Positions 8,841-60,471 are shown, counted from the first letter of the whole stretch. The stretch is 63,965 bases of DNA, filler included, from an uncultured bacterium (GCA_964609495.1; 11 parts of 11 records of this genome joined end to end with filler, not necessarily neighbours in it); one strand, 5' to 3'. Made by a program: numbers and translations. The notes: a model not told the origin generated them from the letters alone.

Positions 8841-10369
8841 AAGTGATGCTATTAGTTCCTCCGGGAGGATACTACGCGGAGCGATGGAGTAAAGGCTCGC
8901 TTATGCCTCCTCTAGGACTAGGATATTTAGCGGCAGTATTGGAGGAAAACGATATACCTGTCGAGGTAATAGATGCTTATGTCGAGGGGTATTCCCTGGA
9001 GGAATTGGGTGAGAGATTAGAGAAGAGCAAACCCGATATAGTAGGAATAACTATAACTACTGAGAACCGCTTTGAGGGATTCGATACCGCAGTTATGGTT
9101 AAGGAGACTTTGCCTCGAGCTATCGTAGTAGCAGGAGGCCCCCATATATCCTTAGCTGCCGAGGATACTTTGAGAGGCATACCTCAGATCGATCTAGCCG
9201 TTAGAGGAGAGGGAGAATACACCCTCTTAGATATAGTGAGAGCTATTGAGGCCGAGGGGGGAATCCTCCCCTCTACCTCTCCTATATTTAGGGGGAGGAA
9301 TCCTCCTCTCCACTCCTCCTATATTAAAGGAAGTGGATTCGAGAATATAGCTGGCCTTTCGTTCCGAAGAGGGAATGATATCATTCATAATCCTCCCCGA
9401 CCTCCCATTAGAGATTTAGATTCCATACCCTTTCCTGCCAGACACCTATTCCCCTGGGATAAATACAACTTCTACCTAGATGTTCCTGGAAAGGGAAGGT
9501 TGCCAGCGGCTAATATCATAACCAGCAGAGGTTGTCCGTTCTCCTGCAATTTCTGTGCTTCTAGCTCGATGTGGGGAAGAAGATATCGCACCGCTTCTCC
9601 AGAGAGGGTCATCGAGGAGATCGAGCTGTTGAAGAGGGATTATAAAGCCAAGGCGATCTGGTTCTTCGATGATACCTTTAACCTAGAGAAGAGGCGCACG
9701 GAGAAGATATGCGATCTAATGATCGAGCGTTCGCTAAATTTATACTGGTACTGTGAGATTCGCGTTGATATCCTGACCAAAGATCTACTAGCTAAGATGA
9801 AGGAGGCGGGATGTTACTGCGTAGCCTTCGGGGTAGAATCGGGATCGCAGAGGATATTAGATGAAGTTATCGGAAAGGGAATCAATATTGAACAGGCAAG
9901 AAGAACTGTTAAGTGGTGTCGGGAATTAGGCCTCTTAGCTAATCCCTTCTTTATCCTCAGCCATCCGAGTGAGACCATTAAGGAGGCTGAAAAGACGATG
10001 AGTCTAATAAGGGAGTTCTCCCCAAATAGTCAAGTCAGCCTCTCCTTATTACACGTCTATCCGGGCACTAAGCTGGAGGAGACCGCTAAGGAGAAGGGGA
10101 TCATCCCCCCTGGTTTCTCCTGGACTGACAGAAATATGTCCGGAGTGATAACCCTTCCCTCCTCTCAAGGAAATGTTCCCCTCTTTATCGACCAGTTGAC
10201 TTGGGAAGATATCAGTCATTACCTCTTCAAATGGGCTAGCTTGCAAAATTACTCCGTTCTTAAGCGAATACCCCAAGCCTTGAAGTCTATTCGCAATTGG
10301 GATGACTTTAGGCGCTATTGGACTATGTTCAGAGCTTATGTTAGACATAGACTTGGAGGCGTCGCTTGA
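8837..10369 (+). CDS. Cobalamin-binding radical SAM protein
   Basis: PPLGLGYLAA and GGPH B12-binding motifs, SRGCPFSCNFC, GVESGS; carries a 24-aa repeat-derived insert. Confidence 0.9.
   Translation: MKVMLLVPPGGYYAERWSKGSLMPPLGLGYLAAVLEENDIPVEVIDAYVEGYSLEELGERLEKSKPDIVGITITTENRFEGFDTAVMVKETLPRAIVVAGGPHISLAAEDTLRGIPQIDLAVRGEGEYTLLDIVRAIEAEGGILPSTSPIFRGRNPPLHSSYIKGSGFENIAGLSFRRGNDIIHNPPRPPIRDLDSIPFPARHLFPWDKYNFYLDVPGKGRLPAANIITSRGCPFSCNFCASSSMWGRRYRTASPERVIEEIELLKRDYKAKAIWFFDDTFNLEKRRTEKICDLMIERSLNLYWYCEIRVDILTKDLLAKMKEAGCYCVAFGVESGSQRILDEVIGKGINIEQARRTVKWCRELGLLANPFFILSHPSETIKEAEKTMSLIREFSPNSQVSLSLLHVYPGTKLEETAKEKGIIPPGFSWTDRNMSGVITLPSSQGNVPLFIDQLTWEDISHYLFKWASLQNYSVLKRIPQALKSIRNWDDFRRYWTMFRAYVRHRLGGVA
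9254..9325 (+). repeat. Two tandem B repeats (35 nt each) in frame within the radical SAM CDS
   Basis: GAGGGGGGAATCCTCCCCTCTACCTCTCCTATATT (9254-9288) and GGGGGAGGAATCCTCCTCTCCACTCCTCCTATATT (9291-9325). Confidence 0.85.
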
Positions 10370-11256
10370 AATCTAGTTGGCAACTTCAGATATTCAATAG
10401 ATCACTCAAGAAGAGGCAGAAATTTGAGGTTGTTACGAGTCTTATGAACTCCACCGAAGATAAAGGGGAAGGAATCCTCCCCTCTATAAAGGAAACTTTT
10501 GCTTCAAACAAAACTCAAGGTTCAAAAGTTTCCTTTATCCCTTCTATATTCGGGAAGTGCTTGGATATCGGATGTGCTACTGGAGTTCTAAGCTATTATC
10601 TGAGACATAAGGGCGGCTATTGGATCAGCGCAGATATAGACGAGGAGAATCTATCGGAGACCAAGAGTCTGGTGAAGGAAAATGTAATTCGGATAGATGA
10701 GAGGAATTTGAGCTTTAAGGATGAGATATTCGATTGTGTTGTAGTTTTGGACTTTCTGGAGCATATCGAGGATGACGATGCTCTCCTCTCCGAGATCAGG
10801 CGAGTGTTGAAGCCGAAGGGCAAAGTCTATATAAGCGTCCCACGTATAGAGGGCTTACTCCTAATAAATAAACTAAAGAGACTTATCGGCATAACCCAGG
10901 AATACTATGGTCATAAGCGCCCCGGATATAGCTTTGCGGGACTACGAGATAAGCTTAAAAAGAACGGCTTTGAGATCTTAGCTCAAAGAACCTTCTCCAA
11001 GTTCTTCACCGAAGCGATAGAGCTGGTTATAAATTCGATATATATCCTTCTAGGCAAGAGAAAAGGAGAGGCCTTTAGACGAGAAGGACAACATATCTCT
11101 ATATCCTCAGCCTCCGAGTTTGAAACTCATAAAGCCTCATTTAAGCTATATTCTCTGTTATATCCTCTCTTGGAACTAATCTCCAAATTAGATAAGCTCC
11201 TATTCTTTGCTCCCGGCTATGTGCTAGTGATCAAAGCGCGTAAAGATGGAAATTGA
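10366..11256 (+). CDS. Class I SAM-dependent methyltransferase
   Basis: CLDIGCATG motif I, FDCVVVLDFLEHI, RRVLKPKG; TTG start overlapping the upstream stop. Confidence 0.85.
   Translation: MKSSWQLQIFNRSLKKRQKFEVVTSLMNSTEDKGEGILPSIKETFASNKTQGSKVSFIPSIFGKCLDIGCATGVLSYYLRHKGGYWISADIDEENLSETKSLVKENVIRIDERNLSFKDEIFDCVVVLDFLEHIEDDDALLSEIRRVLKPKGKVYISVPRIEGLLLINKLKRLIGITQEYYGHKRPGYSFAGLRDKLKKNGFEILAQRTFSKFFTEAIELVINSIYILLGKRKGEAFRREGQHISISSASEFETHKASFKLYSLLYPLLELISKLDKLLFFAPGYVLVIKARKDGN
10465..10550 (+). repeat. B repeat interrupted by an A hairpin (10486-10538), in frame within the methyltransferase
   Basis: GGGGAAGGAATCCTCCCCTCT[A element]ATCCCTTCTATATT; A arms ATAAAGGAAACTTTTG/CAAAAGTTTCCTTTAT form a perfect 16-bp IR. 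Confidence 0.88.
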
Positions 11257-11273
11257 GGGAGGAATCCCCTTCG
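11255..11273 (+). repeat. Truncated B repeat at a gene junction
   Basis: GAGGGAGGAATCCCCTTCG overlaps the TGA stop and provides GGAGG before ATG 11274. Confidence 0.55.
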
Positions 11274-58263: not shown

Positions 58264-58342
58264 AAAATAGAAAGGGTAACTTTTTTAACCCTGAGTTCTA
58301 TTTCCTGCAAAAAGTTACCTTTTAGGGGAGGATTCCTCCCCC
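58264..58342 (-). repeat. B repeat interrupted by an A hairpin (58271-58324) between rpsG and fusA
   Basis: Reverse complement GGGGGAGGAATCCTCCCC-TAAAAGGTAACTTTTT...AAAAAAGTTACCCTTT-CTATTTT. Confidence 0.85.
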
Positions 58343-58356
58343 ATAAGGAGATTTCC

Positions 58357-60471
58357 GTGCCAAGAGAATTTTCCCTGGAGAGAACCAGAAATATAGGAAT
58401 CATCGCCCACATCGACGCAGGAAAGACCACTGTTACCGAAAGAATCCTCTTCTACACTGGAATAGTGCGTCGAATGGGAGAGGTGCACGATGGCGCCGCC
58501 ACCATGGATTGGATGGCTCAGGAGCAAGAGCGAGGGATAACGATCACCGCCGCCGCCACCACCTGCCGATGGCTAGATCATCGAATCAACATAATCGATA
58601 CCCCCGGTCATGTGGATTTCACCGTCGAGGTGGAACGCAGTCTCCGGGTCCTCGATGGGGCTATCGTCGTCTTCGATGGAGTAGCAGGAGTGGAGCCCCA
58701 ATCGGAGACCGTCTGGCGTCAAGCGGATAGATATCACATCCCCCGTATCTGTTTCATCAACAAGCTCGATAGAGCAGGAGCCGATTACCTCGGATCAATC
58801 CAGTCGATAAGGGATAAACTCGCTGCTAAACCCCTGCTCCTAGAGCTACCGATCGGACTTGAGGAGGAATTCAAAGGTGTCATCGACCTCGTAAAGATGA
58901 AAGCCATCGTCTATCTGGACGAACTAGGAACTCGCTACGAAGAGAGCGAGATCCCCGAGGAACTAAGGGAGATAGCGGAGGAATATCATCAACATCTACT
59001 CGAGGCAACTTGTGAGATCGATGATCAACTCATCGAAAAATACCTAGAGAGCGAGGAGATCTCCCAGGACGAGCTGAGGAGAGGGATAAGAAAAGGAACT
59101 ATCGAGGTCGAATTCATCCCCGTCCTCTGCGGAAGCGCCCTATGTAACAAAGGGATACAACCCCTCTTGGACACGGTGGTCTATTATCTTCCTGCTCCTT
59201 CTGATATCCCCCCCGTTCAGGGATATCACCCTCAGAGTAGAGAGAGCGAACATAGATACGCCTCCGATGACGAACCATTTTCAGCCCTAGCCTTCAAGGT
59301 AGCGACAGATCCCTACGTCGGCAGGTTGACCTACATCCGCGTCTATTCAGGATCGGTCAAGTCAGGCTCTTATGTCTATAACTCGACGAAGGATAAGCAA
59401 GAGCGCATCGGACGTCTTTTGCAGATGCATGCCAACCATCGTCAAGAGAGACAGGAGGTCTATGCTGGAGACATAGCTGCGGTTGTTGGCTTGAGAAACA
59501 CCTCGACTGGAGATACCCTATGTAACCGCGCTCATCCGCTTCTTCTAGAATCGATAACCTTTCCTGAACCGGTCATCTCCGTCGCGATCGAACCGAGAAC
59601 GCAGATCGATCAAGAGAGGCTCATCACCTCCTTGGGCAGACTAGCTGATGAAGATCCAACTTTTAAGATCAAGACCGACAAGGATACCTCTCAGCTCATC
59701 ATCTCGGGGATGGGAGAACTTCACCTAGAGATCCTAATTGATCGCCTATTGCGAGAGTTTAAGGTAGCCGCCGATGTTGGTAAGCCTCAGGTATCCTATA
59801 AGGAGACGATAAGAGGGGTCGCTGAGGCAGAAGGCAAATACATCCGTCAAAGTGGTGGTCGGGGGCAATATGGTCACGTATTGTTGAGATTAGAACCTTT
59901 AATAATAAATACAGGAGGAGTAGAGGGGAGGATTCCTCCCTCTTCCGAGAAGGAACTTGAATTCATAAATCAGATCAGAGGAGGAGACATACCCAAGGAT
60001 TTTATTCCGGCGATTGAGGAGGGAGTCAGAGAGGGGATGTCTGCCGGCCCCCTAGCCGGATATCCCGTGACCGGGATCAGAGCTATTCTCTATGGTGGCA
60101 GTTATCATGAGGTCGATTCCTCACATTTAGCTTTCAAGATAGCCGCCTCCATGGCCTTCACTTCGGCCCTTAAAAAGGCTCTGCCATCTATCTTAGAGCC
60201 GATAATGAGGCTAGAAGTCGTAGTTCCCGAGGAGTACATAGGCGAGGTGTTGGGAGATATACATATTCGTCGAGGGCAGATAAGTGGAGTAGAGGCTAGA
60301 GTCGGTATCCAGGTTATACATTCGGAAGTGCCGCTAGCTGAGATGTTCGGGTATGCTACAGATCTTAGATCTAAGACGCAGGGAAGAGCGACTTTTACTA
60401 TGGAATTTACCAAATACGCTGAGGTCCCAGATCAGATTGCTCAAAGAATAATAAGTAGGATGATATGGTAA
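58357..60471 (+). CDS. fusA: Elongation factor G
   Basis: [28 protein letters not shown]; lies between rpsG and tuf. Confidence 0.96.
59908..59942 (-). repeat. B repeat in frame within fusA
   Basis: Reverse complement GAGGGAGGAATCCTCCCCTCTACTCCTCCTGTATT, 31/35 identical to each copy at 9254 and 9291. Confidence 0.88.

Follow-up and report, generated by a model that had tools for sequence, protein, structure and literature searches.

Short repeats in the window

We analyzed a 63,965-base stretch of DNA from an uncultured bacterium (the window), in which three short repeats, designated A, B and C, are dispersed over spacers and protein-coding genes. The window consists of 11 draft contigs, ~3.3-6.1 kb each, separated by 100-nt N/TTAATTAATTAA linkers, and its gene content is ordinary chromosomal, including the ATP synthase operon, mur genes, rpsL-rpsG-fusA, sugar-nucleotide enzymes and regulators. 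Copies of A or B lie within the genes for a B12-binding radical S-adenosylmethionine (SAM) protein (8837..10369, + strand; Pfam PF02310 and PF04055), a class I SAM-dependent methyltransferase (10366..11256, +; Pfam) and elongation factor G (EF-G; fusA, 58357..60471, +; domain scan and EF-G comparison).

Repeat A is an AT-rich hairpin of 47-51 nt, in which the arms AAAGG(T/A/G)AACTTTT and AAAAGTT(A/T/C)CCTTT pair over 12-14 bp and enclose a conserved loop of ~20 nt containing ...GCTTCAAATAGAACTCAAGGT.... An nhmmer profile identified seven full copies in the window and one copy cut by a contig end, all with E <= 2.5e-7, while the next match had E of 0.31; a 12-nt fragment of A is also found at the contig start at 24897. 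A degenerate A pattern matched the window six times, with none expected from 100 shuffles. The predicted RNA folds of A have energies of -15.6 to -16.5 kcal/mol (z of -3.0 to -4.6). The dinucleotides flanking A are TA..TA, AA..TT or TT..AA, i.e. they form inverted and not direct repeats, and therefore belong to the stem and do not represent a target-site duplication (TSD).

One of the window copies is in the reading frame of a gene, that of the methyltransferase (10485..10539, +; nhmmer E 1.3e-15), where a stop-free copy with GGAAAC arms lies inside a B unit and would be read as IKETFASNKTQGSKVSFIPS. This copy belongs to subtype A2, defined below. The remaining seven are intergenic. The copy at 13496..13548 (+; nhmmer), with the compensated arms GAAAAC/GTTTTC, begins at the stop codon of the ORF at 12591-13499. 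The other six, also nhmmer matches, belong to subtype A1, defined below. The one at 15802..15855 (+) separates the hairpin of a C repeat from its third block, a composite also present on contigs L030, L050, L060 and L064 from metagenomes; the one at 30833..30864 (-) is nested in the first pyrimidine block of another C repeat and is cut by the contig end, but is completed by contig L036, which is 100% identical. Two more are associated with B, at 34707..34760 (+), in the right flank of the intergenic B copy at 34678-34704, and at 58269..58325 (-) in the rpsG-fusA spacer, abutting B at 58322-58347. The last two occupy the atpE-atpF spacer (27266..27320, +; in the opposite orientation in L040) and the spacer between the EF-G paralogue and rpsG (57686..57742, -; without its left arm and loop in L059).

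The str operon (55185-60471) is organized as rpsL, EF-G paralogue, rpsG and fusA, with the second EF-G gene placed between the genes for S12 and S7. This paralogue (55601-57682) codes for 693 residues that are 46% identical to the fusA product, with all five domains present; one A1 copy follows it, and another follows rpsG.

Repeat B, AGGGGAGGAATCCTCCCCT, is a 19-nt palindrome (GGGGAGG/CCTCCCC) embedded in a unit of 37-39 nt. Allowing up to three mismatches, it occurs at six sites (9254, 9291, 10465, 34685, 58324 and 59924), against 0.06 expected. Alignment of the copies shows that in the full unit the palindrome is followed by TCTAC(Y)CCTCCTATATT, a second pyrimidine block; such units are seen as a tandem pair in the radical SAM gene, in reverse in the EF-G gene, and in the methyltransferase gene once the nested A copy is omitted. 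Two of the copies within 3 mismatches, at 34678..34704 (+) and at 58322..58347 (-), the latter upstream of fusA, are intergenic and of a short form. In coding frames, B is found in two orientations and three reading modes, yielding EGGILPS/GEGILPS, RGRNPPL and VEGRIPPS. Four to five weak look-alikes were also detected in the window by nhmmer (E of 0.06-1.7); the one at the N-terminus of the P-type ATPase ORF (16466..16490, +; E 0.06; coding for MEGEIPSSI) appears to be a diverged look-alike only, and its kinship with B is weak.

A preliminary description of this DNA had counted about nine copies of A and about ten of B; of the latter, the six sites are firm while the rest correspond to the weak look-alikes. 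Both repeats greatly exceed chance expectation (A, 6 vs 0; B, 6 vs 0.06), and the occurrence of B in both orientations and three reading modes was upheld. Of the four proteins in which it had placed B in a coding frame, the radical SAM protein, the methyltransferase and EF-G are confirmed, but not the P-type ATPase, with its diverged match; and the copy at 58269-58347 is in the spacer upstream of fusA and not inside the gene.

Subtypes of A and their distribution relative to genes

A search of JGI metagenomes with the A pattern yielded 59 contigs carrying 61 copies. Together the contigs make up 144 kb (GC content 0.438), and several of them match window loci at 91-100% identity. In the combined set of the window and the 59 contigs, 87 profile hits were reduced to 79 sites and to at least 58 distinct loci. 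The arms of A co-vary: perfectly complementary 9-nt cores are present in 43 of 59 distinct copies, which fall into three arm types and isolated compensated variants. Because MAFFT misaligned the right arms between subtypes, pairing was scored with a script.

In subtype A1, with GGTAAC arms, none of the six frames is free of stop codons. Its copies are located beside B, within C repeats and in other spacers, and for the most part they are nested in C-rich blocks, either of B units or of C repeats. Subtypes A2 (GGAAAC arms) and A3 (GGGAAC arms) consist of 47 nt plus two paired flanking dinucleotides, making 51 nt or 17 codons, and are open in two of six frames, or in four if the outer TAA is altered; coding copies of A have TCA or AAA at the position of the A1 TAA. 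The left flank of A1 is C-rich and then reads TAA, while that of A2 is merely AT-rich, and no fixed word is present. When a copy was called intragenic if an open frame of at least 40 codons extended on both sides of it, nine of the 58 loci were intragenic: none of 20 for A1, seven of 34 for A2, and two of three for A3. The difference between A2 and A3 combined (9/37) and A1 (0/20) corresponds to a Fisher p of 0.02. The subtypes thus provide a built-in control, in that the stop-containing one stays outside genes and the stop-free one enters them.

In-frame inserts in proteins

Comparison with orthologs revealed the empty sites that the preliminary description, which had proposed that the repeats add peptide loops, would lead one to expect. 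In the radical SAM gene, two tandem B units (9249..9327, +; 37 + 38 nt, 75 nt in total) are inserted in frame and code for 25 residues between the B12 and radical SAM domains, which are absent from all 40 best homologues (51-56% identical). In the methyltransferase gene, the B palindrome (10460..10487, +; placed by copy alignment) codes for GEGILPS, and the remainder of its unit is found past the nested A copy, at 10539-10551. A close relative, P0002 (84% identical), has the B peptide but lacks the 21 residues encoded by the A-bearing 63-nt stretch, while all eight more distant orthologues lack the entire 30 residues of A and B, at a site just before motif I. In EF-G, a full B unit in reverse orientation (59906..59949, -; copy alignment and EF-G comparison) forms a 39-nt insert in domain IV coding for 13 residues, which are present neither in Thermus EF-G (PDB 1efg) nor in the window's own 46%-identical paralogue. 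Among 119 other EF-Gs, this loop is minimal in 90, has two more residues in 12, and is replaced by longer unrelated loops in ~17; its length varies across lineages, indicating that the insertion site is permissive. The inserted loops are predicted to be disordered: in AF2 models, residues 33-59 of the methyltransferase have pLDDT < 50, with flanks of 76-88, and residues 518-531 of EF-G, located between two strands, also have pLDDT < 50, neither segment showing secondary structure while the elements on either side are modeled with confidence.

The nine intragenic A copies of the window and contigs reside in the methyltransferase, an epimerase, a DnaA-type initiator, a DUF4388 protein, an unnamed 475-residue protein, an O-antigen ligase, RmlD, a TPR-Roadblock protein and a GH38 mannosidase, and each of the nine is stop-free and keeps the frame. 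In DnaA, the PF00308 domain is split by A, adding 29 residues in comparison with PDB 8bv3, and RmlD shows an 18-residue gap against PDB 1vl0; overall, domains are split by, or run across, the A inserts in DnaA, DUF4388, RmlD, epimerase, GH38, PyrK and GlyS. The recurrent peptide is K-E-T-F-A-x-N-K-T-Q-G-(S/K)-K-V-S-F. A profile of the A2 peptide, searched against 1.84 billion proteins, retrieved eight proteins at E <= 1e-3, six of which were examined. P0362 is the O-antigen ligase of contig L018; P0365, P0366, P0367 and P0368 are new hosts, namely PyrK (with its Fe-S domain split), GlyS (domain split), a TnpB tail and an SLT transglycosylase; and P0364 is a 58-residue ORF that runs through nested A copies. 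Related DNA and protein databases taken together, A is in frame in the window methyltransferase and in 12 further proteins.

Nesting and differences between close strains

As had been described, the repeats are nested in each other: the A copies at 10488, 34707 and 58269 lie against B or split it, and those at 15802 and 30833 split C. A is also found within A, in that a truncated copy ending in ...CTCAAG is directly followed by a full copy, a junction present on at least five contigs (L007, 1042-1120; L011, 1064-1145; L041, 361-443; L061, 927-1012; L063, 4229-4318).

Pairwise alignment of the window with metagenome contigs that are 92-99.8% identical to it revealed A copies that are present in one and absent, flipped or truncated in the other. 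A clean gain is seen on L040 (95% identical), where a 51-nt A2 copy is inserted exactly at the stop codon at 26508; this gain can be accounted for without a target duplication. In the atpE-atpF spacer, one and the same site is occupied by the A element on this contig (2958-3012) and in the window (27266-27366), but in opposite orientations. On L059 (99.8% identical), the A copy at 57688 is missing 39 nt comprising the left arm and the loop. L025 (~92% identical) reads ...CCCTCT TTTAGA AAGTGC... at the methyltransferase site, without the 63 nt made up of A and the remainder of the B unit, and corresponds to protein P0002. This contig also contains a reverse-orientation A copy inside the neighboring epimerase gene, which is stop-free and in frame with a net gain of 42 nt, and a further 146 nt, made up of a B unit and a spacer, at the methyltransferase/epimerase junction, where the window retains half a B. 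Finally, on L022, L008 and L036 the first pyrimidine block of a C repeat is interrupted by A1 at a constant position; in the window (43121), on L049 and on L055, this repeat is intact.

Two of these loci call for additional remarks. At the gene junction, the B unit and a 120-nt spacer (664-811 of L025) separate the two genes, while 11253-11275 of the window holds the left half of B, with GGAGG 12 nt before an ATG; the TTG start at 11253 in the epimerase ORF call is probably wrong, and the ATG at 11275 fits (MRILVTGG). A further 46 nt, containing a separate hairpin (GAGAGCGAAA...TTTCGCTCTC), are present in the atpE-atpF spacer of the window but not in that of L040.

Contigs of four public runs gave summed depths of 94, 36, 28 and 6.3 over the methyltransferase A copy, compared with ~0-5 in the adjacent bins, summed depth not being equivalent to copy number. 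The boundaries of A, at 10486-88 and 10536-41, are marked in these four runs by loose contig ends that continue in many different ways. No contig in runs X1, X2, X3 and X6 joins across the empty methyltransferase site, the contigs being short and stopping at repeats; the single "goes back" joint, seen in X6, is between two B-type sequences and is uninformative with regard to excision. Repeats also lie within 100 nt of six of the 20 internal contig ends of the window, compared with 2.2% of random 100-nt windows, indicating that the assembly was broken by the repeats and that their true copy number is likely much higher than that seen in the window. In practical terms, such repeats fragment assemblies, and in metagenome-assembled genomes of the lineage they lengthen or distort predicted genes.

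Repeat C and the BoxC/triplex motif

Repeat C is a hairpin, CCCTCTCCC-loop-GGGAGAGGG, often followed by AGGGTGAGGGGG; a CCCCCTCCC variant is also present. Judging from its sequence, it is the published BoxC, PIT or intrastrand triplex motif, which is pan-bacterial in distribution. This motif is known from more than 260 genomes and has been linked to local genomic instability (Holder et al. 2015; PMC4666352). The intact copy at 43121..43157 (+) reads CCCTCTCCC-loop-GGGAGAGGG-CC-AGGGTGAGGGGG and, compared with Table 1 of PMC4666352, contains three consecutive blocks, the pyrimidine CCCTCTCCC, the purine GGGAGAGGG and the G/T-rich third block GGGTGAGGG. The other copies, likewise identified as motif matches, are in various states of preservation: the motif at 15791..15879 (-) is split by the A copy at 15802; that at 30802..30832 (-) has its first block interrupted by the A copy at 30833; a degenerate motif is found at a contig start at 37074..37104 (-); and the hairpin alone, without the third block, at another contig start at 12495..12517 (+). 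A variant triplex-type motif, CACCCTCCCCC ... CCCCCTTCC-loop-GGGAGGGG, is located at 43052..43087 (+), with related copies at 15910-15944, 48807-48845 and 60650-60673.

Matches to 43112-43170 of the window are found in 5365 of 5426 E. coli genomes, with 80-90% identity (86% over 49 nt) and a median of 17 places per genome; the E. coli copy between phnD and phnE aligns with the window motif block for block. Exact matches to the composite C pattern were found at more than 113 loci in species-representative genomes, in Deltaproteobacteria, Nitrospirota, Dehalococcoidia, Atribacterota, Planctomycetota and Serratia/Enterobacter. Five of five genomes from different phyla contained 7-65 exact copies each, as opposed to none for the reversed control. 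Only two of these five genomes have a match to Y1_Tnp (PF01797), so that the spread of C is not obviously tied to RAYT/IS200 enzymes.

Distribution of A and B

In contrast to C, the A pattern and a B 20-mer had no hits in 185,579 species-representative genomes, and a literature search with A and B sequences returned nothing beyond two chance primer matches. On this basis, A and B appear to be two lineage-specific families. The preliminary description had regarded all three repeats as the genome's own hierarchy of elements, which is consistent with the absence of A and B from reference genomes, but is wrong for C, as it is present from E. coli to Dehalococcoidia. A strict pattern made of the A1 arms with any loop gave six single hits in genomes; their loops are unrelated to that of A, and they represent unrelated hairpins and not A relatives.

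For the window EF-G, the highest identity reached in reference collections is ~63-65%, and the best matches come from mixed phyla and do not place the lineage. Public runs containing the operon are labeled as salt-marsh, marsh and marine-sediment metagenomes; no RNA run was among those listed for 8837-12257.

Other features of the window

There are ten linkers between the contigs, e.g. at 6147-6246 and 12378-12477, and a further run of ten Ns at 31424-31433, within the sixth contig. The ATP synthase genes (24901-30651, -) are arranged in an unusual order: beta, epsilon, AtpI-like, a, c, fused b-delta and alpha; a gamma gene, if present, is not seen because the contig stops at alpha. Two regions of ~170 nt, at 60721-60886 and 63147-63320, are 85-87% alike, lie upstream of SBP_bac_5 binding-protein and permease genes, and each hold a long inverted repeat (GGGATATAGGAT ... 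ATCCTATATCCC); they may represent a shared operator or leader. No Rfam matches were obtained in the window at the gathering threshold.

Interpretation of the repeats

We consider it very probable that A and B are very short non-autonomous palindromic elements, mobile at present or until recently in an uncultured marsh/sediment bacterium, and that their in-frame copies add loops to its proteins. Direct support for this comes from their repetition above chance, their nesting, their presence or absence in close strains, and their absence from orthologues. Those A and B copies that land in genes without breaking the frame would survive and be read as extra loops, the 37-39-nt B unit behaving in genes in the same way as A, while the BoxC/triplex motif would act as a landing site for A. 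Both elements would be mobilized in trans.

Alternatively, A could be a classical MITE (miniature inverted-repeat transposable element), whose terminal inverted repeats are bound by a DDE transposase of the IS630/Tc1-mariner type that duplicates a TA target. The arms are indeed perfect inverted repeats, TA is found on both sides of 17 of 29 A2 copies, and the gain on L040 could be read as 49 nt plus a duplicated TA. However, the flanks other than TA are AA..TT or TT..AA, i.e. inverted complements and hence stem; A1 insertions into triplex motifs are not accompanied by TA duplication; no DDE gene is present in the window; and a duplex of 49-51 bp with ends 20 bp apart would be hard to synapse in double-stranded form, all of which leaves a MITE of this kind improbable. 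We give slightly less credence still to the view that the repeats are no longer mobile and represent ancient hairpins with a structural or regulatory role (terminators or mRNA stabilizers, for example) that selection has maintained, with strain differences due to slippage, deletion and recombination at hairpins. Most copies directly follow stop codons and their RNA folds are stable; some differences, as on L059, are deletions bounded by short direct repeats; and triplex motifs are reported to raise local instability (PMC4666352). Deletion alone, however, would hardly yield the clean 51-nt gain on L040 and the in-frame copy in the L025 epimerase; the copies at the 58 or more distinct loci are near-identical, including their loops; they occur in both orientations relative to transcription; and they are found in 13 unrelated proteins, where a terminator would do harm.

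The intragenic copies could also remain untranslated, if the ribosome skipped them or they were removed from mRNA. There are precedents for bypass in the byp elements of yeast mitochondria and the T4 gene 60 gap, and hairpins of ~50 nt inside ORFs are close in size to known bypass gaps. Bypass, however, does not require a copy to be free of stops or to keep the frame, as all nine intragenic copies do, nor would it account for the exclusion of the stop-containing A1 (0/20) and for TCA or AAA in coding copies in place of the consensus TAA. This pattern is the one predicted by translation and argues against bypass, which we regard as very unlikely. The chance is practically negligible that KETFA..NKTQG and GILPS represent a protein-level motif, such as a domain or linker, or that the inserts are artefacts of chimeric assembly. 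Although the peptide shows conservation from host to host, the DNA that codes for it also turns up in spacers and is read in several frames and in different orientations, and nucleotide identity extends to third codon positions; as for artefacts, the same insertions recur in independent assemblies from different runs and collections, with the methyltransferase copy shared by the window and L046, the EF-G copy by the window and L059, and P0362 matching the protein from L018.

Several observations weigh against the interpretation of A and B as mobile, loop-adding elements. The filled and empty methyltransferase sites are not related by clean insertion, as the window has 53 + 16 nt where L025 has 6 nt, and the epimerase site differs by +51 and -9 nt, implying that secondary changes, or deletion rather than insertion, were involved. 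Comparison of flanks uncovered no conserved target motif around A copies. The EF-G loop is variable elsewhere too, with the unrelated longer loops in ~17 of 119 proteins, and a search of reference collections, where the best identity is ~63-65%, did not bring up any close EF-G relative without the insert. Low pLDDT of the inserts may reflect, at least in part, the absence of homologous alignment columns, and we infer their translation from open frames, net lengths that are multiples of three, and replacement of TAA by TCA or AAA in coding copies. The enzyme is also missing from the DNA at hand: in agreement with the preliminary description, no transposase, RAYT (REP-associated tyrosine transposase) or Y1 domain was seen in the 50 window ORFs scanned, and a tblastn search of the 208 kb with two Y1 seeds returned nothing better than an E of 0.38, a weak test given the two seeds and the fragmentary DNA. 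Neither GTAG nor CGTC tags are present in the 59-copy A alignment or in B, and a kinship of these repeats with repetitive extragenic palindromic (REP) sequences and RAYTs would be conjectural. The single association with a tnpB gene, described below, is in an element whose flanks do not recur elsewhere in the window and the 59 contigs, and the A copy may therefore be just one more random insertion.

As to how A and B would be moved, the route that we tentatively prefer, with somewhat less than an even chance of being correct, is transposition as a single-strand hairpin by an HUH-type enzyme, either IS200/IS605- or RAYT-like. It is favored by the hairpin structure, the lack of duplication, insertion in either orientation, the liking for non-B DNA, and small size. 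No related autonomous insertion sequence sharing the A ends was found in the window or the 59 contigs. The 1.8-kb contig L033, however, carries at 287-1552 (-) a full-length IS605-type tnpB of 280 + 140 codons, with one in-frame stop between ...LEDLKSI and QRARMRKK..., and its A2 copy begins a few codons past the end of solved TnpB/Cas12f homologues, in the region of the right end of such elements. A B-type cluster is located upstream of tnpB; there is no tnpA on the contig, and no matching left end.

A more specific and rather doubtful proposal is that A2 is a selfish 17-codon hairpin that is harmless in coding DNA, being stop-free in several frames and causing no target duplication, and that it is moved in single-stranded form by an IS200/IS605- or RAYT-like enzyme drawn to non-B DNA, i.e. 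hairpins and triplex motifs. If this were true, A2 would be the smallest known mobile element routinely colonizing essential genes (DnaA, GlyS and PyrK in the case of A; EF-G in that of B), and, in a free-living bacterium, a source from which new protein loops arise naturally.

Comparison with known systems

C shares with the BoxC/PIT/triplex motif the three blocks CCCTCTCCC, GGGAGAGGG and AGGGTGAGGG, at 86% identity over 49 nt to E. coli copies, and is likewise multi-copy, intergenic and associated with local rearrangement (PMC4666352). It differs in that A1 here repeatedly breaks it up, either at a constant position within the first pyrimidine block or ahead of the third block, and no such description is met in the accessible text of PMC4666352. 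Repeated landing in a motif whose function is still unknown constitutes a concrete observation on its effect on neighboring DNA.

With regard to A and B, short hairpin repeats lacking a clear target duplication, inserted in either orientation and forming mosaic clusters of the bacterial interspersed mosaic element (BIME) type, are also characteristic of REP sequences and REPINs mobilized by RAYTs and of derivatives of IS200/IS605, to which PATE belong. The A2 copy in the 3′ tail of an IS605-type tnpB adds to the likeness. REPs, however, are GC-rich palindromes of 20-40 nt, whereas A has an AT-rich stem and a long conserved loop, and it lacks the GTAG or CGTC tag (PMC3733652). Moreover, REPs are extragenic by definition, while A2 and B are often intragenic, and neither RAYT nor TnpA was found in the window and the 59 contigs. 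MITEs share with A the terminal inverted repeats, but not the TSD in direct orientation. Those MITEs that form in-frame ORF fusions (intragenic ERIC, BOX and Anabaena MITEs), as well as "Cod-2", the small intragenic repeat of Petrillo et al. 2008 (PMC2267715), are similar in being intragenic and in yielding different peptides in each frame (PMC2267715, PMC10969869); they are mostly longer, and polymorphism between close strains, which is seen for A and B, was not shown for them. In comparison with in-frame MITEs, neither an autonomous partner nor a target duplication was seen for A.

By function, A and B would be classed with Rickettsia palindromic elements (RPEs) as in-frame palindromic insertion elements, of which they are apparently new and much smaller representatives. 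RPEs are likewise dispersed palindromes found in frame in many unrelated housekeeping genes, where they add a conserved peptide with no counterpart in orthologues, apparently where the fold tolerates it, and the mobilizing enzyme is unknown for them, as it is for A and B (PMC10969869). A search for further RPE-like systems brought up nothing beyond this MITE review. The comparison concerns function and not sequence: RPEs are ~100-150 bp long, compared with 47-51 nt for A and 37-39 nt for the B unit, and reside in obligate intracellular hosts and not in a free-living marsh/sediment bacterium. Unlike RPEs, A has a stop-containing sister subtype confined to spacers, and copies are polymorphic between strains that are 92-99.8% identical. 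Colonization of proteins by in-frame palindromes has been known almost only from Rickettsia, where it is tied to reductive intracellular evolution; the same outcome is seen here in an unrelated free-living sediment bacterium with elements a third the size, and, as close strains currently differ in the presence or absence of copies, the process is amenable to study.

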